Origin: a virus
Lineage: Duplodnaviria; Caudoviricetes
IMG/VR virus record: IMGVR_UViG_3300024996_000140
Location: 1-38,218 of that record
Direction: 5' to 3' (one strand)
Length of the DNA stretch: 38,218 nucleotides
Numbering within the stretch: the first letter of the stretch is position 1; each line of letters starts with the position of its first letter. Positions 3,279-38,203 of the stretch are shown in pieces. The notes beneath the pieces are model-generated. The model did not search any database. It was not told the origin of the DNA and saw only the letters and a list, made by a program, of their open reading frames with translations. The position numbers were made by a program, and so were the translations under genes.

Positions 3279-3644
3279 TCACCCCTTGCCGTTCTCGATG
3301 TGTCGGTCGAGGCGTTCCGCGAGGGTTTGCACCCGGTCGGATGATGCCGCCGCGATCGCGGACGCTTTCGCTGCCTCGGTCTCCGCCCGCGCCGCTGACC
3401 GTTCGGTGCGGGTGATGGCGTCGCGCATCGACTGGCCGCCGTTCGGCAGCACCTGGTGCTGGATCGTGGCGATGGTCGTGTTCTGCGCGGCCATCTGATC
3501 CATCAGGCCGGGCCGGCCCGGCTCGCCCTCCACAGCGCGCAGCACCCGCCCGGCGCGGTGGATCGGCCTCCAGAACAGCGTCACGACGGCCGCGAGTGCG
3601 AGAACGACGCCGAGCAGTGTGGAAAGCGGGTCGAGCCAATCCAT
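3279..3644 (-). CDS. Lysis-cassette membrane protein (TM plus coiled coil)
   Basis: GGAGG RBS; N-terminal TM; PNGGQSMRD motif typical of actinophage lysis-region proteins. Confidence 0.75.
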   Translation of the reverse strand: MDWLDPLSTLLGVVLALAAVVTLFWRPIHRAGRVLRAVEGEPGRPGLMDQMAAQNTTIATIQHQVLPNGGQSMRDAITRTERSAARAETEAAKASAIAAASSDRVQTLAERLDRHIENGKG

Positions 3645-3664
3645 CAGACCTCCAGGTATGCGTG

Positions 3665-3686
3665 AGCCCCGCACGACGGCGGGGCT
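3665..3686. terminator. 8-bp GC hairpin between tail and lysis genes
   Basis: AGCCCCGC-ACGACG-GCGGGGCT; no U-tract. Confidence 0.4.
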
Positions 3687-3715
3687 GCGATCGGTGACGG
3701 GCCGGCGGGGGACGG

Positions 3716-4006
3716 TCAGGCGGGTGTGCCCAGCACCGCGGTGAGCGCATACAGGATGTGCGCGTCCGTCACCGCCGCCGGGTTCACCCCGGGCCGCGGT
3801 GTCGGGCTGTAGGTGGCCTGCGCGTACTCGTACACGGATGCGATCGTGTCACCCGTGTCCGTCGCAGCGGCGGCGGCGAGCCGGATCCGCACCGACTCCA
3901 CCTGCTGCTGCCCGTAGCCCAACGTCGCGCCCAACGCGACCATGCGGGCCAGCAGATCCGAGTCGGAGGAAGCGGCGATTATCGACGCCGAGGTAGGAGT
4001 GGACAT
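3716..4006 (-). CDS. Small tail-region protein (96 aa)
   Basis: AAAGGA RBS; MSTPTSASII...AVTDAHILYAL. Confidence 0.75.
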   Translation of the reverse strand: MSTPTSASIIAASSDSDLLARMVALGATLGYGQQQVESVRIRLAAAAATDTGDTIASVYEYAQATYSPTPRPGVNPAAVTDAHILYALTAVLGTPA

Positions 4007-4034
4007 GAGAATGTTCCTTTCGGTGATGTGACTC

Positions 4035-4622
4035 TTACTCGATGACGGGGGAGCCCGGGTAGGTCGTCGGCCACGGCTGCACGGTTTGCACGACGGCCGC
4101 GAAGTTGTGGGTTCCGGTGCCGACCGCAATTCCGCCGAACTTGACGCTCCCTCCGATCCTCGAATCGAACGTCGCGTCGTTTGCGGTGAACGCGGTGGTG
4201 TAGTTATACCCGGTGCCCTTCAGCAATCCGCCGACGTTGAAACTGGCGCCGTTAACAGCTTGGAATCCGGTCGGGACGTTCATGAACGTTGTGCCGTAGG
4301 GCACCGTCCCCGTGGCGCTTCCGTTGATATACACCAAGCCGTTGATTCGCTGAACGGTGGCGGTGCCGCCGATGGAGCTGACGATGTAAGTTTCGTCAAG
4401 CCATCTCGGGCGAGTGTCCCCAACGGTGACGATCCACCCAGACGCCGTCTTGACCCACACCTGCGCGCCCTGGTCCCCGGTTGTGGAGTGGAACTCCGCG
4501 CCCTGCGTTGCTGCTGCGACCCACGCCGCCCCGGCCGCGTCGAGCGTCCCTGTGATGTCCGGGCGTCCCTGCCCCCAGTACTGCCGGCGAGACACCGTCT
4601 CCCCGTGGAGCACGGGGATCAT
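4035..4622 (-). CDS. Tail-tip/fibre-like protein, MIPVLH paralog B (195 aa)
   Basis: GAQVWVKTASGWIVTVGDT, VQRINGLVY, VPTGFQ, PWPTTYPG resemble actinophage fibre C-terminal domains. Confidence 0.7.
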   Translation of the reverse strand: MIPVLHGETVSRRQYWGQGRPDITGTLDAAGAAWVAAATQGAEFHSTTGDQGAQVWVKTASGWIVTVGDTRPRWLDETYIVSSIGGTATVQRINGLVYINGSATGTVPYGTTFMNVPTGFQAVNGASFNVGGLLKGTGYNYTTAFTANDATFDSRIGGSVKFGGIAVGTGTHNFAAVVQTVQPWPTTYPGSPVIE

Positions 4623-4632
4623 CGGGCACCTA

Positions 4633-5007
4633 CTAGGCGGGCACCCCGGGGTAGGGCGCCGGCGGGAAGTCGATCAGCTGCGGCAGCACGAGGACGTTCA
4701 TCTCCGCGATGTCGAGTGTGCCGGTGGTGCCCGTCGTCCCGTCGTTCCGGAAGAACAAGGTGCCGGCGGGTGACCCGTTGCGGTAGTACTGCATCGGCGC
4801 GCCGTAGAAGTTCGTTCCCCACGCTCGCCAATGGGCGTTGAGGGCCGTCGTAGCGAGCGACGCCGACGAGCTGGCGTTGGAGAACCTCCAGGCGAGAAAC
4901 GGGCCGATGCGACGGACCAGGATCTTCCCGCCCGTCACGACACTGAACAAGCCCGTGATGTCCCGCCAGCCCGTGTCCGGCATCCCGGCGTGTAACACCG
5001 GGATCAT
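4633..5007 (-). CDS. Tail-tip/fibre-like protein, MIPVLH paralog A (124 aa)
   Basis: MIPVLH...DTGWRDIT...VRRIG...FPPAPYPGVPA; shares start and YPG-containing end with 4035..4622. Confidence 0.7.
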   Translation of the reverse strand: MIPVLHAGMPDTGWRDITGLFSVVTGGKILVRRIGPFLAWRFSNASSSASLATTALNAHWRAWGTNFYGAPMQYYRNGSPAGTLFFRNDGTTGTTGTLDIAEMNVLVLPQLIDFPPAPYPGVPA

Positions 5008-5028
5008 GACGCGGTCCTGGTGGCGTGC

Positions 5029-5082
5029 TCATCGAGCCCACCGGCCCAGACGAGCGGGGGGGGGGGGGAATGTCAGCATCAT
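5029..5082 (-). CDS. Putative 17-aa mini-ORF MMLTFPPPPARLGRWAR containing the C13 tract
   Basis: GGAAGG RBS-like motif, ATGATG start, TGA at 5031-5029. Confidence 0.45.
   Translation of the reverse strand: MMLTFPPPPARLGRWAR
5056..5068. repeat. G13 homopolymer (C13 on coding strand)
   Basis: Direct count; the only run of this length I saw in the window. Confidence 0.95.
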
Positions 5083-5107
5083 GCCGCCTTCCATGTGAGA
5101 GACCCGG
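5081..5107. repeat. Direct repeat copy 2 (orphan GSLTWKAA* gene end)
   Basis: 24/27 identical to 6833-6859. Confidence 0.85.
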
Positions 5108-5113
5108 GGTGTT

Positions 5114-6175
5114 TCAGGCGATCGCATACCGGTCACCGCCGTGCACGAGAGCGCCGGCCGCGGGCATCGGCAGCGCCGGGGCGTCGGTCATGGCCTGAAT
5201 GCTGGTGCCGGCCAGGACGTCGAACAGGGTCCAGGTGACACCGTCCGTGGACTGGATGATCGAGACGCCGTCCGTGGCTAGGAAGCGTGCCCCGCCGGTC
5301 CACCACACGACGCGTTTCATGTTCGCGGTGCCGAGCGGGTTGACCCGCGCCGTCCACGTCGTCGCCGTGGAGTTGGAGGTGGTGATGCCGCCGCCGTCGC
5401 CGACGACGCAGAACATGTTCTGCGTCGGCGAGTGGGCCGCCGACCGGGCGGGGCCGGGCAGGTTCGAGGTTCGGGCCGTCCAGCCCGACCCGTTCGTCGA
5501 AGTGGAGATCCGGCCGGCGTTGCCGGCGATCACCGCCAGCGCCGCCACCGTCGAGACGGCGATACAGATGATGTGCTCAGATCCGAGCGCGTTGTTCGTG
5601 AAGTTCCACGGTGACAGCCCGGTGGTCGAGTAAGACAGTGTGCCGGTGGTGTTACCGCCCAGGAACATGCCGAGCTTCGCCGACCAGCGGACCGCCCCGG
5701 TGTACAGGTTGTAGGCGTTGATGCGCTGCGACGCCCACGTGACACCATCGGTGGACACCGCCCCGTAGCCCATGTAGCCGGCGGCGACGAACCGGCCGCG
5801 CACAGGCGACCAGTCGATCGTGTTGAAGCCCTGCCCGGTCAGCGGGGTGGTGTGCTCCGTCCAGTGGATCCGGTCCGGGGACGTGTAAGTGTTACCGTTC
5901 GCGCCGGCCGCGCACAGCAAGCCCAGCGACGGCGCCCAGCACATGTCGGATATGTTGCCGACGATCCCCGTCGAAGCGTCGATCGCCGCCTCGACGTCGG
6001 CGATCGTGATGAACTTGCTCGACGAGCCAATCGCCACGGCCAGATTCGGCGTGGACTTCGGGATGATCTCGAAGCGGGTCGCCGGCAGCGCCCCGGTGAT
6101 CTCCGCGCCGATGAACGCCCGCACGGTCTGCGTCGCCGCCCCGACCTCCCCGCCGCCCAGGAACAGCCGGCTCAC
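5114..6175 (-). CDS. Beta-propeller (Asp-box/BNR repeat) tail protein, candidate receptor-binding protein (353 aa)
   Basis: YTSPDRIHW, STDGVTW (twice), STNGSGW; GTG start overlaps the upstream TGA. Confidence 0.75.
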   Translation of the reverse strand: MSRLFLGGGEVGAATQTVRAFIGAEITGALPATRFEIIPKSTPNLAVAIGSSSKFITIADVEAAIDASTGIVGNISDMCWAPSLGLLCAAGANGNTYTSPDRIHWTEHTTPLTGQGFNTIDWSPVRGRFVAAGYMGYGAVSTDGVTWASQRINAYNLYTGAVRWSAKLGMFLGGNTTGTLSYSTTGLSPWNFTNNALGSEHIICIAVSTVAALAVIAGNAGRISTSTNGSGWTARTSNLPGPARSAAHSPTQNMFCVVGDGGGITTSNSTATTWTARVNPLGTANMKRVVWWTGGARFLATDGVSIIQSTDGVTWTLFDVLAGTSIQAMTDAPALPMPAAGALVHGGDRYAIA

Positions 6176-6348
6176 AGCAGCGTCCAAGCCCCGGACGCCC
6201 GCAGGTGGAACGTGACCGTCCCCGAGGCGGGCTGAATCCACACCGTGCCGTCATCCACTGCGCCCGGGTCGGTCGCGCTGATGATCGTCGGATGGCCCGA
6301 GCCGTCGCCGAACGAGACGAGCTGGTCACCGAGGTAGAGGCTGATCAT
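6172..6348 (-). CDS. Small tail-fibre-associated protein (58 aa; absent from ORF track)
   Basis: Hand translation MISLYLGDQLVSFG...IISATDPGAVDDGTVWIQP...WTLL; ATGA and GTGA overlaps at both ends. Confidence 0.75.
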   Translation of the reverse strand: MISLYLGDQLVSFGDGSGHPTIISATDPGAVDDGTVWIQPASGTVTFHLRASGAWTLL

Positions 6349-6827
6349 GACTGCACCAGGTATGCCATCGCCGGGTCCTTCGTGGCGAGCGCGTCAAACT
6401 CGGCCTTGGTTCCCACCCACACGTTGGTGAGCGTCACCGACCCTGCGGGCTGCAGCGCAGTGTCCGCCAGCTCGCCCTGCGCCGCGGTTGCATACGTTCC
6501 GGCCGGGGCCCCGCCGAGGTCCTCGTAGGTGAGCGCCACATTCCCGTCGACGTCCGGCAGCTTCCCCGCCACCGACGACACGGTGCCGGTTCCGTCCACG
6601 CCGCCCTCAGCGAGCACCGCCCAATGCGCCGTGTCCGCATCGGGGGTGGTTGCGGTCGCCGTGCGGTCCAGAATGCACAGGTACGTGGAGCGGCCGTTCT
6701 TCACGAAATCCATGGCCTGATACATCGCCGACGACGACCAGGTGCCTTTCCGCACGAGCCCGACCGGGCCGGGCATGAGCGGCCGCCACGCTGATGTGGC
6801 CGTGTCGAAGTACTTTGCGACCGCCAT
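6345..6827 (-). CDS. Minor tail/fibre protein with CBM5/12-like motif
   Basis: GTWSSSAMYQAMDFVKNGRSTYLC...W; C-terminal VWVGTKAEFDALATKDP. Confidence 0.7.
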   Translation of the reverse strand: MAVAKYFDTATSAWRPLMPGPVGLVRKGTWSSSAMYQAMDFVKNGRSTYLCILDRTATATTPDADTAHWAVLAEGGVDGTGTVSSVAGKLPDVDGNVALTYEDLGGAPAGTYATAAQGELADTALQPAGSVTLTNVWVGTKAEFDALATKDPAMAYLVQS

Positions 6828-6830
6828 GTC

Positions 6831-7682
6831 CTATGCCGCCTTCCAGGTGAGCGATCCGGACAGCACCGCGCCGGCGGCGGGCGGCCCCAGGATCAGCAGC
6901 TGCGTCGTGGAGGCGTACGCGGCCCACCATTCGCCGACCGAATCCACCAGCCAGCCGTGGCCTTGCGGGAAGGCGGGGGTGAACCCGGCCGGGATCGTCG
7001 CCACATGCTCCACCGTGGAGGCTTTCGTCAGCCCGGAGATCGCGCACACGACACGGGTGCCGACCTTCTCGAGGGTGATCGTGCCGGCGGACGCCCCGGT
7101 GGTGAGCGCGGCGGTGGCGGTGGTGGCGCCGGCGCCGGCCGCGCCCGGCTTCCACGAGGATGTGGCCGCGTCGTACACGAGCGCGTCCTTATCGACCGCG
7201 CCCGTCGTGGCGACGTCGGTCAGGTCGTCCAGCGCCATCGGTGTCGCCGCCCCCGGGTCGGAGGTGTCCACCCAGATCCGGTCCGTCTCGGCCGGGGCCG
7301 CGCCACCGACGTGCGTGCCGGTCGCACCCACATCGCCGCGCGGGATCGTGAGCTTCGGCTTCGACGCCAGTGGCGTGCCGGTCTCCTCCAGCGTCACGTC
7401 CGTGCCCGGGGCGCCAGTCACTACCGGCTGCCACTCGATCGTGGCCGCCGTTCCTGGGATGCCCTGAGGGATCCCCAAGCTCAGTTTCTGATTCGGGGCG
7501 TCTCCGTCGATCGCCGCTGTCGCGGGGTCTTCCGGGTCCAGTGTGGTCACCTGGTCGATCGTGAGCGTGTTCGCCGGGCCGCGGCGGCCCTCACCGAACG
7601 CCGCCTCCACCTGGTAGGTGACGCCGCCCATCTCGACGGTGAGCTGATACACGTTCGCGTTGAGCGTGGCCTCCGTGCTCAT
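6831..7682 (-). CDS. Tail fibre-like protein (283 aa)
   Basis: GIPQGIPG and IPRGDVGATG collagen-like hinges, RIWVDT, LDDLTDV, ATIPAGFTP; ends GSLTWKAA. Confidence 0.75.
   Translation of the reverse strand: MSTEATLNANVYQLTVEMGGVTYQVEAAFGEGRRGPANTLTIDQVTTLDPEDPATAAIDGDAPNQKLSLGIPQGIPGTAATIEWQPVVTGAPGTDVTLEETGTPLASKPKLTIPRGDVGATGTHVGGAAPAETDRIWVDTSDPGAATPMALDDLTDVATTGAVDKDALVYDAATSSWKPGAAGAGATTATAALTTGASAGTITLEKVGTRVVCAISGLTKASTVEHVATIPAGFTPAFPQGHGWLVDSVGEWWAAYASTTQLLILGPPAAGAVLSGSLTWKAA
6833..6859. repeat. Direct repeat copy 1 (3' end of fibre gene)
   Basis: ATGCCGCCTTCCAGGTGAGCGATCCGG vs ATGCCGCCTTCCATGTGAGAGACCCGG. Confidence 0.85.
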
Positions 7683-8038: not shown

Positions 8039-9699
8039 CGAACGGTCACCACCCCTCCTGTGTCGGCGATCGCCTGCACCATGTAGTCGTTGGTGGGCCC
8101 GGCGTAGACGTCGGTCCACGTGTAGCCGGTGAGGCCGGTGACATCGACTGAGACGATGCGCACCCCGTCGCGGAAGATGTCCAGCCGCACCGGCGGCGGG
8201 TTCTCCAGATCGGAGCCCTGGAACGTGACCTGCATCTGCACGGCGGCGTCCGCCTCCAGCGGGGTCAGCCGCACATACGGGGGACGGGGGAACGCCAGCT
8301 GCATCCCCACCCGGAGCGTGGCCCACTCGGACCACAGCTTGCCGCCGGCCGTGGTTTGCCTGCGCACCTGGATGTGCTCGAACCCGGAGTCGTGAACACC
8401 GTTCGTTCCGGACACCCGCCAGTAGGCACCGTCCGGGGTGAACGTGAGGTCGTCTTCGATGATGCGGGTCTCGTCGGGGGCGCCGGCGTTGTCGGTGACC
8501 CGGCGGCCGTCGAACGCGGTCGCGTCCGCACCCATGTCGAGGGTGGCGATGTTCGCCGCCACCACCGTGTCGTTCACCGCTGGGGCGATGAACGTCGGCG
8601 GCGCCGGCGCCTCCCGCAGCCAGAAGAACGAAGACGGCGACCACTCCGACAGGTTGGAGAACGAGTCGGTGGATCGGGCCTGCACCTCGATCTGCGCCGG
8701 GGCGGTGAACCCGGCCGTGGGCACCGTCCAGTCGCCCGGCCCAACCCGCGCCGCATCGACCTCGGTCCAGGTTCCGGTGCCGGCCGGGGCGTAGCGCACA
8801 TCGACCTGCTGCATGTCGTTGCCCGGCCCGTAGTTCGACTCGATCGAAACGACCAGCGGCGCCGCGGCCGACACATCCGACCCGGAGACGGGGGCGGCGA
8901 TCGACGGCGGGGTCAGCATGCCCGGCCGCTGCAGCACGAAATTGTCCAGCGCCGAGGCGTACGACCCGGAGTCCGAGCCGCCCAAGCCGATGCCGTGCTT
9001 CGTGGCCTCCGAGTTGAAGCCATCGGTGACAGTGCGGGCCACGTCCAGCCCGTTCGGCTGATAAATCTGAATCGTGGCGTCCGACGTCGCCACCCGCAGG
9101 ATCTTGAACGCCGACACCGCCACGTTCGTCACGCCCGACACCACACCCGCGACGGACTTCTCCAGCATCAGATAGCGGTAGGAGCTGGTGCCCGAATACA
9201 GGTCCCGGGTCACCGACTGCGTGTAGGTGAACTCGACCATATGATCGAGGCCGTTCCACACGTGATCAACCCGGCGGGTCGGGATGCCGTGCTGGTAGTC
9301 GAAATACTCCGTCCAGTCCGGCAGCCTGATCGAGCCGCCCTCGGAGCGGGTGCGGTTGCCCCAGCCGGTGCCATACCAATCCCCGTAGTACGAGTACGAC
9401 TGGCTGTAGGCACGCTGCCGCAGCCTCCACCAGTTCGCCGTGTCCGACACCCGGAAATACAGTGCGTCCCCGCCGGCGAACCCGGTGTAGGCGTTGGCCT
9501 GCACATCGACGTCGCCGACACCGGCCTCCATCACCAGCATCGGATTGCTCGACACCGCCGCCGTCGTCTTCGCAGCCCCCGACGTGCGGGCCCACGCCCC
9601 GGCCAGCGCCGACCATGTCGCCCCGGTGGCGCCAACCGCCGAGCCGTTCAGATCCCCGGCGCCGGCGAAATCATCCGTGAACCGCAGCGTCGTCGTCAT
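8035..9699 (-). CDS. Minor tail protein with beta-rich/FN3-like domains (554 aa)
   Basis: Position in tail operon; EVQARSTDSFSNLSEWS, SEW motifs. Confidence 0.75.
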   Translation of the reverse strand: MTTTLRFTDDFAGAGDLNGSAVGATGATWSALAGAWARTSGAAKTTAAVSSNPMLVMEAGVGDVDVQANAYTGFAGGDALYFRVSDTANWWRLRQRAYSQSYSYYGDWYGTGWGNRTRSEGGSIRLPDWTEYFDYQHGIPTRRVDHVWNGLDHMVEFTYTQSVTRDLYSGTSSYRYLMLEKSVAGVVSGVTNVAVSAFKILRVATSDATIQIYQPNGLDVARTVTDGFNSEATKHGIGLGGSDSGSYASALDNFVLQRPGMLTPPSIAAPVSGSDVSAAAPLVVSIESNYGPGNDMQQVDVRYAPAGTGTWTEVDAARVGPGDWTVPTAGFTAPAQIEVQARSTDSFSNLSEWSPSSFFWLREAPAPPTFIAPAVNDTVVAANIATLDMGADATAFDGRRVTDNAGAPDETRIIEDDLTFTPDGAYWRVSGTNGVHDSGFEHIQVRRQTTAGGKLWSEWATLRVGMQLAFPRPPYVRLTPLEADAAVQMQVTFQGSDLENPPPVRLDIFRDGVRIVSVDVTGLTGYTWTDVYAGPTNDYMVQAIADTGGVVTVR

Positions 9700-27765: not shown

Positions 27766-28010
27766 TGGTTACGCTCCCGAAAATCGGGCCACACCATGAG
27801 CGCCGCCTCGGAGACGATCGTGGCGGCCCGGGAGGCGCCCAGCGCCTCGCGCTGCTCCTGCGTCGGCTCGCCGAACTTGCGCCAGCCGAGGGTGTCGCGC
27901 ACCTCGTCGATCGCGACCAGCACGGCACGCACCGCGTCCTCCACGTCGCCGGCCGCGTCGGCCTGGCGCAGCGCGCCGGCGAGTGATCTGCGGGCAGTGG
28001 TCATCGTCAT
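27762..28010 (-). CDS. Hypothetical protein (82 aa)
   Basis: Coupled overlaps. Confidence 0.6.
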   Translation of the reverse strand: MTMTTARRSLAGALRQADAAGDVEDAVRAVLVAIDEVRDTLGWRKFGEPTQEQREALGASRAATIVSEAALMVWPDFRERNQ

Positions 28011-29072: not shown

Positions 29073-29614
29073 GACGCGGCCCGGTGCAGCTTGACGTGAT
29101 CGAACGCCGCGGCGATAGCCGCCGGCCACAGGTCGAAGGACGACACGTCCCGGTCGCACGCGGTGCAGATGACGGCCCAGTCGCCGATGTCTCGGCGGAC
29201 CTCGACGTGTCCGGCGGCGCGTATGCGGCGGCGCCGGGCGCGGGCCCGCCAGATCGCCTGCTGCCTTTTCATCGCCGCCCGGCACGGGTCGCAGATCGGT
29301 TCGCCGCGCCGCTTGTGCCGGTTGAACCCGGTGTAGGTGCCGCACTCCGCCCGGGAGCGCCGTTTCAACACAGTCGGCCGCGGCGGCGCCGGCGGCGCTG
29401 CCGGCGTGACGGTCGCCCGGGTGGGTTGGGCCGTCCGGGCCGGCGGGGACGCCGGGACGGGCAGCAGCTTGAGCCGGCCCTCGGCGAGATCGTCGAGGAC
29501 CCGCTCCACCCGGGACACCCCGACGCCGAGCCGGGCCGCGACGTCGATCGCGTCCAGGCCCACGTCCAGCAGCCGCGCGATCGCGGCCGTCGTCTCAGTC
29601 CTCGTCGGTGTCAT
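29069..29614 (-). CDS. HTH plus Zn-motif DNA-binding protein (181 aa)
   Basis: DVAARLGVGVSRVERV; CGTYTGFNRHKRRGEPICDPC. Confidence 0.7.
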   Translation of the reverse strand: MTPTRTETTAAIARLLDVGLDAIDVAARLGVGVSRVERVLDDLAEGRLKLLPVPASPPARTAQPTRATVTPAAPPAPPRPTVLKRRSRAECGTYTGFNRHKRRGEPICDPCRAAMKRQQAIWRARARRRRIRAAGHVEVRRDIGDWAVICTACDRDVSSFDLWPAAIAAAFDHVKLHRAAS

Positions 29615-31115
29615 CGCCCGGCCCGTCGTCATCGTCCGGCTCCTCGCCGTCTTCGTCGTCGTCCTCGTCCTCGTCTTCGTCGTCGTCTTCGTCGTCGCCG
29701 TCGTCGCCGGCGGCGCGCTCGGCGAGCTCGGCACGCACCTGCGCGATCCACTCCTGCTCCACCTCGGAGAGGCTGTAGCCGAGGGACGCGAGGTGCTCGA
29801 GGTAGGCGACCGCGATCGCCGAGCCGGCGCCGCGGATGATGCGGATCTCGATCCGGGCGGCGCACGACGCCCACAGGATCGCCGTGTGCCGGGTCGGCGG
29901 CTGCGCCCACACAAACTCGCGCACCGCCTGCGCCGACGGCTCGACGGTCAGGCCCAGGATCGGGGCGAGCTGCTGGCAGTCGTCCCAGTACGGTTCCGCG
30001 ACCGACCGGTACGACTCCGCGTCCCGGCGGGCCGCCCGGGCCAGCGCCCACTCGAGGACCTCCCGCGGCTGGTCCTTCCGCGCCACCACGCTGCGCAGGA
30101 ACTCAACGCGCACCTGCCGGGCGGTCGCCCACCGGGCGGCGAACTCATCCTCGGCGGCCTGCTCCGCCTCGCGCGCCGCGATATCCTCCGCGGACATGTC
30201 CGGGTCGGTGCCGATCGTGTTCACGTGCCCGTTGGCTTCCCAGTCGAGGCACACGTATTTCTTCTCGACCTTCGGCTCGGAGCTGTACCGGTTCACCGAC
30301 AGGTACACGGCGTCGCCCGGGCAGCGGCGGTGCGTCAGCGCGGTGATCTTCTTCCCCTGCGGGGAGCGCAGGTCCTCCAGCAGCGCCGGCCGCTCCGTCG
30401 AGTCCCATCTCGAGGTGCGCGGCCTCTTTGTCGTCACGGTGAGCCCGGCGTCTTTCGCCTCCTGGCGGGCGGCGGCCATCACCTCGGCGGTCTTGCGTTC
30501 GCGGCGCAGATCCGCGACCTCGTACTCCGTGTGGCCGTTCGTCGTGGCGGCCAGGAGCCGCTTCACCGCGCCGGCGTCGTCCTGGAACTCGACCAGCGCG
30601 GCCAGGTCCTCGAGCGTCGCTTCACGCTCGTACGCCTTCTCGGCGAGATCAGTGCGCAGCGTCGCCGCGGCGCGGGCCATCTCGACCCGCTGCACCGGGC
30701 GTGCCGTGGCCCGGGCGACCGCCTCCACGTCGATACCGAGATCGAGCATGATCTGCGTCGCCCGCACCTCCTCGGCGACCGTGAACCCGTCACGCACCAG
30801 ACCGGTCACGGCCATGGTCTGCGCCGTCTGTCGGGCGGAGGCAAGATCCGGGCGCACAATGCACGGCAACACGGCGCCGGCGCGGGTCGCCGCGGCCTGC
30901 CGCCGGTTCCCGTCGATCGCCACATGCGTCACACCCGCCGGGAAGGTGTGCCCCTCCACGGTCTCGACCGGGACCACGATCAGGGGCACCAGCACACCCA
31001 CCTCGGCGATCGACGCCGCCAGGGCGTCCAAGCCCCGGGACGCGTCCCGCACGTTATCCGGGTGCTGCGCCACCACACCCGGATCCAAATCCATCACAAC
31101 AGCCTCGGCAGCCAT
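29595..31115 (-). CDS. ParB/Srx N-terminal domain protein with acidic tail
   Basis: HPDNVR...LAASIAEVGVLVPLIV...IDGNRRQAA, HTH-like region; start within a few codons. Confidence 0.85.
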   Translation of the reverse strand: MAAEAVVMDLDPGVVAQHPDNVRDASRGLDALAASIAEVGVLVPLIVVPVETVEGHTFPAGVTHVAIDGNRRQAAATRAGAVLPCIVRPDLASARQTAQTMAVTGLVRDGFTVAEEVRATQIMLDLGIDVEAVARATARPVQRVEMARAAATLRTDLAEKAYEREATLEDLAALVEFQDDAGAVKRLLAATTNGHTEYEVADLRRERKTAEVMAAARQEAKDAGLTVTTKRPRTSRWDSTERPALLEDLRSPQGKKITALTHRRCPGDAVYLSVNRYSSEPKVEKKYVCLDWEANGHVNTIGTDPDMSAEDIAAREAEQAAEDEFAARWATARQVRVEFLRSVVARKDQPREVLEWALARAARRDAESYRSVAEPYWDDCQQLAPILGLTVEPSAQAVREFVWAQPPTRHTAILWASCAARIEIRIIRGAGSAIAVAYLEHLASLGYSLSEVEQEWIAQVRAELAERAAGDDGDDEDDDEDEDEDDDEDGEEPDDDDGPGDDTDED

Positions 31116-31170
31116 CACTACAATTCCTCCACTTTCCTTCACAGACAACAGGTTTCAGCCCACCCGCCGG

Positions 31171-31338
31171 TTACGAGTGGAGCGGCCATCTCCGTTTCAC
31201 CGGGGCGATCCGCGGCAGCGGATGCACATCCAGCACCAAGTACTTTTCGAACTCCACATGCAGCGCCGCACCCGCCAGATACGGCGTCTGACAGCAGTCA
31301 CACCGGCCATCCGCGGCCGCCTTCCGCGACGTGGTCAT
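31171..31338 (-). CDS. Small Cys-rich ORF, possibly frameshifted (55 aa; absent from ORF track)
   Basis: ATGA overlap; MTTSRKAAADGRCDCCQTPYLAG... Confidence 0.45.
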   Translation of the reverse strand: MTTSRKAAADGRCDCCQTPYLAGAALHVEFEKYLVLDVHPLPRIAPVKRRWPLHS

Positions 31339-31964
31339 TGGGTGTCACTCGTCTCGGACGCGGGCGACCAGCCGAGCTCGCGCATCATCTGATGCATCGC
31401 CTCGGCGCTGACCCGGTAGACGCCCGGCTCGTCCTGGCGCAGATGGCACCGCTGAGTTGTGCCCGGGTGCGACCAGTAGACGCCGGGTAGCTCGACCGCC
31501 TCGAGCGCTGATCCTGAACGCTCGTCCAGGGGAGCGAGATCCAGCATCCACGCCACGATCTCGTCCAGATCGTCAGTGACGAGATTGGCCATCTTCGCCA
31601 TCAGTTCCGGCTCCTCGCCATCGCGGGTGAGGATCGCCGTGCGCTTGCCGGCCCCGGCGCACCAGCCCAGCTCGAGGTGCGCGGAGCGGCCGGCCGGCAG
31701 CAGCAACACACACACATCCGCCCACTGCATCGCCTCGAAATCCGAGCGGAACCCCTCGACCGCGCGCGGATGCTCCAGGGCGGCGACGTACTCATCTGCC
31801 GTCCACGACTGCCAATCCGGATCGATCTCCGACCACGCGAACCCGGTCGCGTTCGGCGGGTTCCGGAAGTCGTAGACCTCGTGACCCGCAGACCGCAGAT
31901 GCGCGACCACCGCCGGCTGGCCCGGGTGCCGCCACGACGACGCCAAATAGATGCGCGCCATCAC
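31335..31964 (-). CDS. Nucleoside 2-deoxyribosyltransferase-like protein with C-terminal extension
   Basis: IYLASSWR, HEVYDF, DFEAMQWAD, GRSAHLELGW. Confidence 0.75.
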   Translation of the reverse strand: MMARIYLASSWRHPGQPAVVAHLRSAGHEVYDFRNPPNATGFAWSEIDPDWQSWTADEYVAALEHPRAVEGFRSDFEAMQWADVCVLLLPAGRSAHLELGWCAGAGKRTAILTRDGEEPELMAKMANLVTDDLDEIVAWMLDLAPLDERSGSALEAVELPGVYWSHPGTTQRCHLRQDEPGVYRVSAEAMHQMMRELGWSPASETSDTQ

Positions 31965-32742: not shown

Positions 32743-32966
32743 GCGGCGGCGCTCCTGTGGCCGGCGGCGCGCAGGGCGCGGTGCCGGCGGCGTAGCTCGC
32801 CGTCTTCGTCCGGGATCGGTCCGAGGGGCCGGGCGCCGATCCACCGGGTGCGCTCCATGGCGGTGTTGTGCGCCGTCTGGTAGGCGGCGTAGGTGCCGAG
32901 GGCGATCGCGACGACGGCCTGCACCGCGTAGGGGATCGCCGCGGCGATGATCTGCGTGGTGGTCAC
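32739..32966 (-). CDS. Small membrane protein
   Basis: N-terminal TM; coupled overlaps. Confidence 0.6.
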   Translation of the reverse strand: MTTTQIIAAAIPYAVQAVVAIALGTYAAYQTAHNTAMERTRWIGARPLGPIPDEDGELRRRHRALRAAGHRSAAA

Positions 32967-33772
32967 GACTCGTCACCGCCGTCGAGGTCGATCGTGAGCG
33001 TGGTCAGATCGACCGGCGCGTCGGTCTCTTTGGTTTCGGGTGCGCCGGTGTTGGGCGGGTCGGGTGGCAGCTCCGGGAGCACAGAGGACAGGGAGCCGAA
33101 GCTATCGAGCCATCCGCGCCGCGACGTGTCCCACCAGTCTTCGTCCGCGCCGGTGACCTGCCGGCACATCAGAGCGCCGACGAACGACTCGCCGCAGGAC
33201 ACCACGACCGCCCGGGCGCCGGCTACTGGTTCGGCGAGTAGCTCCCACTCGAAGGCGCGGGTCGCGGCGGTGAATCGGGCCATGTAGTCGCCGGGCATCG
33301 GCAGCTGGGACGCTGGGGCGCGGTTTCGCCACAGGCCGGCCAGGATGGTGGGCACGTCCGGCCAGCGCGGATGCGGGGTCGCGGGCACGATCGTGAGTGA
33401 CGTGCCCGGAAACAGGCCGCTGACATCTGTTACCGTGAGCGCCTTCTCGGTGACGTCGAGGCGCACGACCGGGTTGTCGTCCTTGTTCGCCGGCCGGAAC
33501 ACCTTCAAAAGCAGCCGGGCCATCTCCGGGTACAGGTCGAAGCAGCCGAGGACTTGCGGGCGGTCCACCAGGTGCACGCCTGCCAGCGCCATGGTGAAGC
33601 GGTCGGTTGCGCCGACGTGCACGCCGGCCGCGGTGACGAACACGCGCAGCCGGGCGAGATCCGGCGTCACCTTCGCATCGGCCACGTGCGGCAAAGTTGA
33701 CAGCAACGCCCCGCGGAGTGATCGGAGTTTCGCCGAGAACTGGAAGTCCACAAGCGTTTTCGTCTTAGCCAC
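32963..33772 (-). CDS. Sliding clamp (DnaN)-like protein, partial (269 aa)
   Basis: VGATDRFTMA resembles the DnaN ATDR/GxRLA motif; WPDV; ALM. Confidence 0.55.
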   Translation of the reverse strand: MAKTKTLVDFQFSAKLRSLRGALLSTLPHVADAKVTPDLARLRVFVTAAGVHVGATDRFTMALAGVHLVDRPQVLGCFDLYPEMARLLLKVFRPANKDDNPVVRLDVTEKALTVTDVSGLFPGTSLTIVPATPHPRWPDVPTILAGLWRNRAPASQLPMPGDYMARFTAATRAFEWELLAEPVAGARAVVVSCGESFVGALMCRQVTGADEDWWDTSRRGWLDSFGSLSSVLPELPPDPPNTGAPETKETDAPVDLTTLTIDLDGGDES

Positions 33773-34127
33773 GGCTATCGACCACCCATCCGACGATGAA
33801 CAGGAACAGAGCAAACGACACGATCCCGATACCGACCGAGGCGCCGAGGAACACCGCGAACGGGATCCCGATCGCGAACGTGAGCGCGAACGCCGCGGAG
33901 ATCAGCACCACGCCGAGGTGCCGGCGCCACGCACGCCGCGCCGGCCGGGGCCAGGCGTCAGCGGTCGGCGGGGTGATGACGATCATGTTGGGCGGCACGT
34001 CGAAGATCCGGGCGAGCCGCTCAACGATCAAGGCGTGCTGCGTGCACCACGGGCAGATGCAGCCCGGCCGGTAGTCGTGCCGCTCAAGGAACACACGCCC
34101 GGCACGGGTGCGAGGGTGCGGGCTCAT
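33765..34127 (-). CDS. Membrane protein with Cys/His motif (120 aa)
   Basis: H...GCICPWC; two C-terminal TMs. Confidence 0.65.
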   Translation of the reverse strand: MSPHPRTRAGRVFLERHDYRPGCICPWCTQHALIVERLARIFDVPPNMIVITPPTADAWPRPARRAWRRHLGVVLISAAFALTFAIGIPFAVFLGASVGIGIVSFALFLFIVGWVVDSRG

Positions 34128-36003: not shown

Positions 36004-36349
<346 letters not shown>

Positions 36350-36532
36350 ATGCGCCGGTCGAACGCCCCCGGAGCCTCGTCCACTGTACAGCCTCACCGC
36401 TTCCGCCGAGAAACCGGCTGGTCGAGGTGGTCATAGCGCCGCCGGTCCGCACCGCACCGGGTGGGCGATGCTGCGTCGGCCGGTCCCTCATGCGAGGCCA
36501 TTGTCGCCGGCGGGGATCAATGCGCGGTCGCG

Positions 36533-36958: not shown

Positions 36959-37488
36959 CGCTGCGACGATCAGGACGGTGGCCGGGGTCCACCACGCGCG
37001 CGCACGGTAGTCGAGGGTGGTGATGGCGGCCTCCGGTATCGAGAAGGGGCGAGTCCGAGGGCCGCGTCATACTCGATCCTGCCGCCCCGGCGAAGCGCCC
37101 TCATCGTACTTTGAGGCGGCTGTCAGGGGATCGCCGCACCCAATCGTCCACCGCTGCAACGGGTCTCGATGCCGCCCCGCCGTCGCGCGATGCCGGACAT
37201 CAGCCGCGAATGCCGAACCCGCCCGTCAGGTCTGCTTCACCACGTCCACCGAGATCGATCGTCGTCAGCACCTCGACCCTCACGCCGTCCGCTGCCGAAT
37301 GCCCACGTCCTGCGTCCATGGCTGTCCTCCGAACCGAGCCCAACGTCGGATCGTCGAAGGATACGCTCCGCCCGGGAGGCGCCGCCGGATCAATACCTCA
37401 CGGCGGCATTGTGCCGATCTCGTCATCGGATCGGCGGTGCCGTGTCAACGAAGATCATTCTTATAGCATCTGACCTGCACTTACTCGG

Positions 37489-37562
37489 GGTGGATGACGG
37501 GGCTCGAACCCGCGACAACCGGCACCACAAGCCGGGACTCTACCAACTGAGCTACATCCACC
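37489..37562 (-). tRNA. tRNA-His(GTG)
   Basis: G-1 then GTGGATG/CATCCAC stem, TTGTGGT loop, GTTCGAG. Confidence 0.95.
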
Positions 37563-37597: not shown

Positions 37598-38203
37598 CTA
37601 GCCGATCGGAGCCAGTGACTGCGCAATCCGCCCAGCCGTGTCGACGCTGGGTCCAGGAGCGGGCACGAACACCGTCGCGCGGTAGTAAGCGAGCTCCTGG
37701 ATCGACTCTTTGATGTCCGCCAGCGCCCGGTGCGCCATGCCCTTCTCCGGCTGTGACGAATACACCGGCGGGTACCAGCGGCGGGTGAGTTCCTTGATCG
37801 TGGAGACGTCGATCATCCGATAGTGCAGGAACGACGAGAACTCCGGCATATCCCGTTCGATGAACCCGCGATCGGTGGCGATCGAGTTGCCGGCAAGCAG
37901 CGGCCGGCCGTCCGCCGGGACGTACTGCCGCACATACGCGAGCACAGCGGCCTCCGCGTCGGCCATCGTGATCGTCGAGGTGCGCACCTCGTCGGTGAGC
38001 CCCGACTTCGCGTGCATCTTCGCCACCACCTCGGGCATGGACGCCAAGGCCTCGTCGTCGGCGTGGATCACCAGGTCCACGCCCTCGCCGAGTACGTTCA
38101 GCTCGCCGTCGGTCACCAGCACGGCGATCTCGATGAGCTTGTCCTTGCCCAGGTCGAGGCCCGTCATCTCGCAGTCGGCCCACACGATGTTTTCTGTCGT
38201 CAC
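37598..38203 (-). CDS. orn: Oligoribonuclease
   Basis: [44 protein letters not shown]. Confidence 0.97.

Follow-up and report, generated by a model that had tools for sequence, protein, structure and literature searches.

A probably slippage-prone poly-C leader as a candidate gate for a predicted receptor-binding gene in a prophage of a likely actinobacterial host

Introduction

Can a mutable repeat placed ahead of two intact phage tail genes decide which of them is translated? Alternative receptor-binding tips are kept in one genome by recombinase tail-fibre switches (Mu Gin, P1 Cin, the Bifidobacterium Rin shufflon) and by diversity-generating retroelements (DGRs). The question is raised here by positions 4,035 to 5,113 of IMG/VR record IMGVR_UViG_3300024996_000140 (Duplodnaviria; Caudoviricetes), where a run of 13 C residues lies in a leader mini-open reading frame (mini-ORF) upstream of two genes, A and B, predicted to encode receptor-binding heads. 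In the following, the window denotes the whole stretch of DNA analysed, which is the complete record (38,218 nt, 69% G+C). An initial annotation of this DNA had proposed that the length of the C run selects exclusively between A and B. Our analysis points to a different arrangement, namely a non-polar gate in which a slippage-variable leader would turn on the predicted receptor-binding gene A at C12 or C15 only, with B likely to be made at every length. We hold this reading tentatively, at not quite an even chance, and consider it probable overall that the locus is a real DNA-level regulatory switch of some form.

Results

Tract length sets the frame and the stop of the leader

The core elements of the locus, all on the minus strand, are the following (window positions).

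5056..5068, minus strand: poly-C tract, C13, read from the window sequence
5004..5082, minus strand: leader mini-ORF, ATG at 5082 and second ATG at 5079, from frame computation
5087..5092, minus strand: Shine-Dalgarno (SD)-like GGAAGG, 4 nt before the first leader ATG and 7 nt before the second, from the sequence
4633..5007, minus strand: gene A, 124 aa, a stand-alone receptor-binding-head-like domain (PHROG, fold)
4035..4622, minus strand: gene B, 195 aa, a neck-like segment plus a head domain of the same fibre family (PHROG, fold)
4619..5032, minus strand: bypass frame (A+2) with internal ATG 5032, from frame computation

C13 is the only homopolymer longer than 6 nt in the 38 kb, all other C/G runs being at most 5 nt, and the run-length spectrum of the window predicts 0.004 such runs of at least 13 nt and 0.05 of at least 11 nt; the longest dinucleotide run has 5 units. 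The tract thus stands far beyond the genome background, as simple-sequence contingency loci do. Varying its length in silico from 8 to 18 C, and reading the stops for each length, gave three classes, in full agreement with the coordinates and frames that the initial annotation had assigned to tract, mini-ORF and stops. C9/12/15/18 yield leaders of 24/25/26/27 aa, whose TGA (5006-5004) overlaps the ATG of A (5007); C8/11/14/17 yield products of 152-155 aa, whose TGA (4621-4619) overlaps the ATG of B (4622); and C10/13/16 yield 16-18 aa, with a TGA (5031-5029) overlapping ATG 5032 in the bypass frame. A change in length therefore alters the reading frame, again as in a contingency locus. The end of the tract lies 48 nt from the ATG of A, and the leader is fused to A at no tract length.

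The spacing between stop and start is -4 for leader/A (C12), for bypass/B and for C13-leader/ATG 5032, +10 for A/B and +21 for C13-leader/A. The -4 overlap or very short gap expected of a coupled pair is thus present at this locus, and the neighbouring tail genes are joined by ATGA and GTGA overlaps.

Tract length differs between assemblies of near-identical prophages

All 12 runs listed are represented by assembled contigs and none is an RNA data set; the two best matching ones are bioreactor and wastewater metagenomes, possibly the source of the window. Runs X7, X10, X11 and X12, with small shares, were left out of the contig comparison, and the X6 contigs do not cover the tract. In a pattern scan of GTDB (62 of 64 parts), one of 120 loci was a true relative (L127, on the 37-kb contig G001:C65), and in a pattern scan of JGI metagenomes one of 12 matches was true (L004), identical to the window, carrying C13 and possibly its source. 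G001:C65 shares 36,316 nt with the window at 99.945% identity; the two differ by 14 substitutions and 2 indels, and one of these indels makes the tract C11. In this C11 allele the leader reads 153 codons and ends on the ATGA of B, the bypass frame being open. Tract length thus differs among close relatives, as expected of a contingency locus (C13 in the window and L004 versus C11 in G001:C65).

From run X1, a single gapless Logan contig at depth 21 covers 3700-6400, with a sole difference at 5067 (T in place of the G of the window and L004), so that its tract is C-A-C11, not C13, with length and frame unchanged; this is either a base-calling error beside the G run or an interrupted allele. Run X3 contributes two short contigs starting at 4888, one equal to the window and the other carrying the nine substitutions of the C11 variant, and therefore both alleles of the 5' part of A in one sample. 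On the variant contig (record 2, depth 4), 12 G's align up to 5067 without mismatch and are followed by 6 unaligned letters, an end that reads as C12, the A-on frame, as a weak indication from a single contig end at depth 4.

The differences between the two prophages are concentrated around the tract.

4918..5110, no strand: variable patch, with 10 of the 14 substitutions and 1 of the 2 indels between the two 36-kb prophages

Nine of the 14 genome-wide substitutions fall within the first 90 nt of A (4918-4995), which makes this the most variable spot of the genome. In the frame of A they amount to 6 synonymous and 2 non-synonymous codon changes and, because these changes are mostly synonymous, A is judged to be under purifying selection, and thus a working gene. 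Read in the bypass frame, the same differences are 7 non-synonymous and 2 synonymous (7/9), so the bypass peptide is not conserved and appears unconstrained; it has no Pfam or PHROG match.

We also estimated how readily such an open bypass would arise by chance. Of 4552 stretches of 128 codons taken in the corresponding frame from 17 other genes, 967 were free of stops, and of 20000 synonymous recodings of A, 7554 and 7023 stayed open in the bypass frame (35-38%). The overall range of 21-38% bears out the caveat, raised at the outset, that alternative frames are often open in G+C-rich DNA; the +2 frame is open because G+C-rich third positions keep stops out. Multiplied by one third for landing on the ATGA of B, these values give the whole bypass layout a chance of roughly 7-13% of arising unselected.

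A and B resemble receptor-binding heads

Both genes match PHROG 3971 (A, E 2e-4; B, E 1e-9), as does, more weakly, the C-terminal part of the upstream tail fibre T283, and neither A nor B has a Pfam match. The proposal that the two are paralogues holds insofar as they share the PHROG 3971 match, the family alignments and the best fold match, whereas BLASTP between them recovers only 6 of 7 N-terminal identities at E 0.058. Their homologues are mostly collagen-containing fibres of 300-520 aa with this domain at the C-terminus, and B keeps the segment that precedes the head domain in the longer ones. Among the protein-search matches examined (13 of 24 in one search), there was no other stand-alone protein beginning with MIPVLH, the hexapeptide common to A and B.

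The predicted models have a confidence (pLDDT) of 75 for A and 67 for B. Compared with 48,161 chains, the model of A reached Z 8 with none; it scored VIA Z 7.5 against the Pa223 tail needle, 7.2 against Zamilon Zav_19, 6.6 against both TP901-1 ORF49 and the lactococcal head 2fsd, 5.9 against p2 and 7.1 against Listeria PSA gp15 (root-mean-square deviation 3.2, 104 aligned), all within the range below 8 that, according to the tool, may mean only a common arrangement. A Foldseek search of the PDB with A agrees (best E 0.03, none below 0.001). The predicted beta-barrel of A is thus like the heads of lactococcal and listerial receptor-binding proteins (TP901-1 ORF49/BppL, p2 RBP, PSA gp15; Z 5.9-7.1, 91-104 residues aligned), from which it differs in sequence (7-14% identity) and in having no evident neck or anchor. 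In BFVD, a 168-aa protein of a Corynebacterium phage is the top match of both A and B, with Arthrobacter minor tail proteins next; against actinophage minor tail proteins, A has E values of 4e-4 to 1e-3 and B one of 7e-9. Fold alone shows no function; position, family and fold combined make it likely that A and B are receptor-binding heads, in line with their initial description as tail-tip proteins. A predicted complex of three A copies with the last 50 aa of the upstream tail protein T160 gave no answer (score 0.01).

Both starts are followed by predicted hairpins

A is preceded by a weak SD-like AGGA (-4.0 kcal/mol) and B by a moderate SD-like AGGT at 4631-4628 (-6.2 kcal/mol), the ATG of B lying 10 nt past the stop of A. 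Each AUG runs directly into a predicted hairpin.

4982..5004, minus strand: predicted 10-bp RNA hairpin directly after the AUG of A, -16.7 kcal/mol for +1..+30
4600..4618, minus strand: predicted 8-bp RNA hairpin directly after the AUG of B, -13.9 kcal/mol

Among 31 starts, a control set for both SD and hairpin ranks that includes some miscalled starts, the hairpin of A ranks second and that of B third, placing them in the top 1.4% and 5.6%, respectively, of 3172 background 30-mers. As a hairpin directly follows both AUGs, the shared MIPVLH may owe as much to an RNA element as to a peptide. Structure at a start site can make a gene depend on translation from upstream (PMC12548453).

Distant relatives appear to carry repeat-bearing leaders

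Runs X5, X8 and X9, from other studies, have small word shares with the window, and their loose ends were reverse-complemented and read by eye. Record 14 of X9 (soil, a 140-nt contig, depth 2.7) matches 5077-5142 with 1 difference and carries (TC)9 starting nine nt after ATGATG, at the position of the poly-C tract in the window. That another slippery repeat occupies the identical spot, albeit in this single contig, is the best sign that mutability itself may be kept. A second X9 contig matches 5057-5142. The contig from sediment run X8 (2,332 nt, depth 7.3) matches two segments, 5056-5197 and 4953-5018; the 37 letters between them are replaced by 415, which would suffice for an additional head gene of about 122 codons. 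The X8 and X9 contigs align without gaps across the tract positions. One X5 loose end, from soil, has a leader identical at 20 of 30 positions, in which the on-frame is open and the internal ATG with its overlapping TGA is kept; both off frames would end beside this internal ATG. In another X5 loose end the upstream gene ends in frame 9 nt before a MIPVLH start and, if X8 shares this junction, the X8 bypass frame would not end on the ATGA of the second gene. These comparisons suggest that a repeat-bearing leader ahead of head genes looks shared among relatives, and that the exact bypass-to-B wiring may not be.

Two or 3 of the nine 5' substitutions of A recur in the soil and sediment contigs X5, X8 and X9, as if the 5' ends of head genes were a hotspot of exchange.

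Searches elsewhere gave little. IMG/VR held no relatives of A, of B or of the last 60 aa of the upstream gene; three DNA patterns had 0 matches there, and all 10 of 10 matches to the C10…ATGATCCC pattern were unrelated. The sole IMG/VR relative of the 96-aa gene that follows B has no such leader. A DNA search of GTDB gave short weak matches in 65 of 401 genomes, 15 examined loci being without protein match or repeat; searches with family profiles matched 2 of 401 and 1 of 58 genomes, the 3 loci scanned being free of simple repeats; and a start-pattern search matched 0 of 5. Cultured phages gave short matches only.

The 5' border of the leader holds a copy of the end of an upstream fibre gene

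The start of the leader adjoins a copy of the end of T283.

5079..5108, minus strand: copy of the last 10 codons of T283 (…GSLTWKAA*, source 6831-6860), repeat family D14, 89% over 27 nt

The first codon of the copy differs, all other changes are synonymous, and its TGA overlaps the leader ATG. Since the SD of the leader sits within this 30-nt copy, local duplication is the probable origin of the leader. Its peptide matches no Pfam family, and not PF24243 even at E 10. Recombination between the direct repeats 5079-5108 and 6831-6860 would delete a 1.75-kb module (the 160-, 58- and 353-aa genes) and place the leader directly behind T283.

Discussion

A non-polar gate on A as the favoured reading

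We propose that replication slippage would change the length of the tract, aided by the lack of indel repair by NucS, as seen in M. smegmatis (PMC7015689). At C12 or C15 the computed frame stops the leader on the start of A, and the ribosome would restart on A, whose SD is weak and whose start would be buried in a hairpin, with a second restart on B, 10 nt past the stop of A. The A-on state probably makes B too, because the stop of A lies only this short distance before a start that has its own SD-like AGGT. At C11 or C14 the ribosome would cross A out of frame and stop, by the computed frame, on the start of B, to which it would be coupled. At C13 the stop comes 21 nt short of A, on the ATG that opens the bypass frame, so that mainly B would be made, with more leakage; in E. 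coli and Haloferax, reinitiation is almost lost across a gap of about 20 nt (PMC10666635), in agreement with an off state of A at C13. Thanks to the bypass, this off state would be non-polar on B and on the lysis genes behind it, and the phage population would be a mix of 'A+B' and 'B-only' virions.

Several points weigh against such a gate. Every length comes from assembled contigs, and homopolymers are error-prone; the mismatch between the X1 contig and the window at 5067 leaves the exact tract of the window's isolate uncertain, and G001:C65 and X3, which have the nine substitutions in common, may be the same data, so the two were not counted as independent. Because the tract indel lies amid 10 clustered substitutions, the C11 allele may have been imported by recombination rather than slipped. 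The bypass frame is open at near-chance frequency, the X5 leader has a bypass-frame stop directly before its internal ATG, and the purity of the X8 and X9 tracts is unreadable, 4 of 9 and 3 of 4 differing letters not being listed. On the protein side, the fold scores stay in the range of common arrangements, and the head domains have no evident anchor for joining the virion, A also lacking an evident neck. On the RNA side, A has an SD-like word of its own, bypass-frame ribosomes crossing its start could unfold the hairpin and allow de novo initiation, and the hairpins might work against coupling rather than enforce it, since in one screen structure immediately behind a stop correlated negatively with reinitiation (Chemla et al., in PMC12548453). 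Finally, DnaE1 proofreading largely suppresses short indels (PMC7015689).

Two points raised by the initial annotation stand in part. That the tract varies is supported by C13 versus C11 in near-identical prophages and by the 12 C at a contig end, with the reservation that C11 sits in a possibly recombined patch; that the bypass stays open in relatives is true of the sole complete relative, the C11 variant, and fails for the X5 contig. Its central claim, exclusive choice of A or B, is not upheld, given the stop of A 10 nt before the start of B with AGGT and a bypass near chance.

Alternative readings

A bolder version of the switch, which we consider unlikely, would be a three-position dial in which the repeat of the leader, poly-C or TC and interchangeable from phage to phage, routes ribosomes to three frames, each wired by a stop/start overlap to one intact head, and in which the heads share a 5' DNA segment enabling whole cassettes to be swapped by recombination; if true, it would amount to a host-range selector of the choose-one kind, working without a recombinase, in a family of actinophages from soil and bioreactors.

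Rather unlikely in our view is the exclusive selector as first proposed, with C12/C15 giving only A, C11/C14 only B, and C13 little or some B. The frames do end exactly on both ATGA overlaps, the bypass is open over 153 aa in the C11 variant, the SD of B is predicted to be paired and a hairpin follows its start, and the N-terminal hexapeptide common to A and B looks as though they competed for one socket; moreover, coupling is weaker across a 10-nt gap than at a -4 overlap (PMC10666635). This is countered by the layout at the A/B border, where a ribosome ending A, with AGGT between its stop and the ATG of B, sits on the masking hairpin, and by the chance (21-38%) of an open bypass. The 415 letters of X8 and the 9-nt junction of X5, read by eye and assuming that the junction is shared, also suggest a bypass that misses the second ATGA.

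Quite unlikely is a neutral remnant, in which the leader is a decayed fibre-end or adaptor duplicate, the C run drifts, and A and B start on their own weak SDs. It draws on the position of the leader's SD within the copy of the last codons of T283, on an on-frame peptide that, by eye, loosely recalls the T160 C-terminus and ends in the same TCATGATC junction, on the SD-like words at both A and B, and on the 5 of 10 residues kept, by eye, in the X5 leader. It leaves unexplained why the 13-mer is unique and why a relative has another type of repeat in this position; PF24243 is not matched by the leader peptide at E 10, and the start hairpins argue against free initiation.

Slightly less likely still, as we see it, is a fixed tract whose apparent differences in length stem from errors of assembly or sequencing, and which, if it acts at all, does so because the ribosome or RNA polymerase slips on CCC codons, so that ribosomes are split among the three frames at a fixed A:B ratio. 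Two assemblies of perhaps one sample do disagree within the tract, the 12-C and (TC)9 lengths come from single contigs at depth below 5, and CCC-C sequences near start codons support frameshifting. Against it, a 2-nt difference on a distinct haplotype, together with a dinucleotide repeat, is hard to obtain from base-calling error, and dinucleotide repeats are typical substrates of DNA slippage.

Untranslated C-rich RNA is a Rho substrate, which counts for attenuation by tract length. The least probable of the alternatives, in which tract length sets ribosome travel and hence premature termination by hairpin or Rho before A and B, has a precedent in the leader-peptide repeat of S. gallolyticus pil1 (PMC3894217) and a predicted structure of -28.9 kcal/mol (z -1.6) between tract and A in its favour. 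Against it, 3500-7000 holds 0 terminator-like sites (in a scan that needs a T run, often absent in actinobacterial terminators), termination here would also cut off the downstream endolysin region, and ribosomes stay on the RNA in 2 of 3 frames.

Relation to known systems

The proposed gate on A combines elements that are known separately. In Fletchervirus phages of Campylobacter, tracts of 7-11 G lie inside receptor-binding-protein genes (Sorensen et al. 2021, cited in PMC12633550). Common to both is homopolymer slippage aimed at accessory receptor-binding proteins, with sub-populations as the result (predicted here). The present tract differs in lying in a separate leader, with both head genes intact and control proposed to act via coupling, and in belonging to a temperate siphovirus of a likely actinobacterial host. 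An in-gene switch of the Fletchervirus type was rejected, the tract being outside the coding sequence of A and the leader fused to it at no length.

At pil1 of S. gallolyticus, GCAGA repeats in a leader peptide act by transcription attenuation at a stem-loop terminator (PMC3894217). As at pil1, the repeat in a leader-peptide gene shifts the ribosome stop ahead of intact surface-structure genes; unlike pil1, the stops overlap downstream starts, and the T-run-dependent scan of 3500-7000 found no terminator.

The contingency loci of T2 and T4 are in-gene on/off frameshifts at simple repeats, interpreted as bet-hedging; in the available part of that article, repeats are described as under-represented in infection genes such as tail fibres, with 0 mentions of translational coupling (PMC12633550). 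A reversible repeat frameshift as bet-hedging is proposed here as well, the repeat lying outside the target genes. Bacterial upstream ORFs (uORFs) act through translational coupling or occlusion of the ribosome-binding site, their stop overlapping, or their frame crossing, a downstream start (PMC13285730, PMC12548453). Unlike the described bacterial uORFs, the frame would here be set by a slippery repeat; 'phase variation' and 'repeat' occur 0 times in the available part of PMC12548453. The corresponding part of PMC11868660 mentions neither leader peptides nor translational coupling, and that of PMC10877375 concerns host-side variation. In a search that lay largely outside subscription papers, we found no report of a repeat-bearing leader that gates phage genes by coupling. 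In-gene poly-G receptor-binding switches and the Pil1 repeat leader are thus known, and it is their combination via translational coupling for which no report was found.

Recombination-based systems were also considered and rejected. Unlike Gin, Cin and Rin targets, the genes here are co-oriented whole genes, and the tyrosine recombinase (1-807) sits by the att core like an integrase. For an invertase or shufflon, A, B and their neighbours are all on the minus strand, and neither A nor B is enclosed as a cassette by any of the 25 longest inverted repeats listed. The inverted repeats common to both N-termini were rejected as recombinase sites because their spacers differ between A and B. For a DGR, 2 of the 9 changes in A are at adenines, all nine lying in the 5' 90 nt, and no reverse transcriptase match was found among the ORFs scanned, which did not include every ORF.

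The described phage contingency loci, named only recently, break the gene that carries the repeat (PMC12633550, in its available part). The gate proposed for A would, if confirmed, move the mutable repeat into a disposable leader and, by means of overlapping stops and starts, control an intact receptor-binding gene with no polar effect on the late operon, letting the phage vary its attachment kit at random with neither gene broken. It would also widen the range of phage phase variation to include temperate phages whose hosts are likely actinobacteria, where NucS leaves indels unrepaired. Gene callers would miss such a locus because both target genes look normal, and its layout could serve as a compact stochastic switch for synthetic operons.

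Genomic setting and other observations

The window carries a minus-strand, siphovirus-type late operon with terminase, portal, protease, capsid, tail tube, tape measure, tail proteins and an amidase endolysin, assigned by Pfam and PHROG. The features around the locus are as follows.

1-807: tyrosine integrase (Pfam/PHROG matches)
6831..7682, minus strand: T283, full-length tail fibre that carries a head-type domain of its own at the C-terminus (PHROG 3971, weak, E 0.003)
6345..6827, minus strand: T160, tail protein whose C-terminus is PF24243 Phage_tail_C (Pfam)
6348-6172, minus strand: 58-aa gene, ATGA-coupled to T160
6175-5114, minus strand: 353-aa gene directly upstream of the leader, GTGA-coupled to the 58-aa gene
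3716..4006, minus strand: 96-aa gene after B, with its own SD; its sole IMG/VR relative is likewise behind a fibre-like gene

The 353-aa gene probably begins at GTG 6175, which overlaps the upstream stop, and the 96-aa gene may hold a chaperone-like position. The 58-aa gene begins MISLYLG and the 353-aa gene (GTG) SRLFLGG, a pattern resembling MIPVLHAG.

A tRNA-Lys(CTT) lies at 36274-36350, and 37 nt of it (36276-36312) are repeated upstream of the integrase in the relative's contig; on this evidence the window is an integrated prophage. Its host is likely an actinobacterium, judging from G+C content, WhiB-like matches and actinophage terminase matches at about 30% identity. The contig G001:C65 (L127) was binned under Gemmatimonadetes; its genes look actinobacterial and it is likely mis-binned. 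The host flank holds, beside the tRNA-Lys(CTT) at the att site, a tRNA-His (37487-37561) and an RNase T-family exonuclease (37598-38203).

A second cluster of differences between the two prophages, at 8848-8881, comprises 4 substitutions in a 554-aa tail protein (one synonymous, V283A, V284I), and the variant has a 4-nt insertion at 27987, among small unannotated early-region ORFs, this insertion being no tandem repeat. By PHROG, the early region matches a nucleoside deoxyribosyltransferase-like (31335-31964), a RusA-like (32963-33814) and a ParB-like protein (29595-31148). Behind the integrase and antisense to the late operon, a lipoprotein-like ORF on the plus strand (about 870-1787), with neither a Pfam nor a PHROG match, is possibly a moron.

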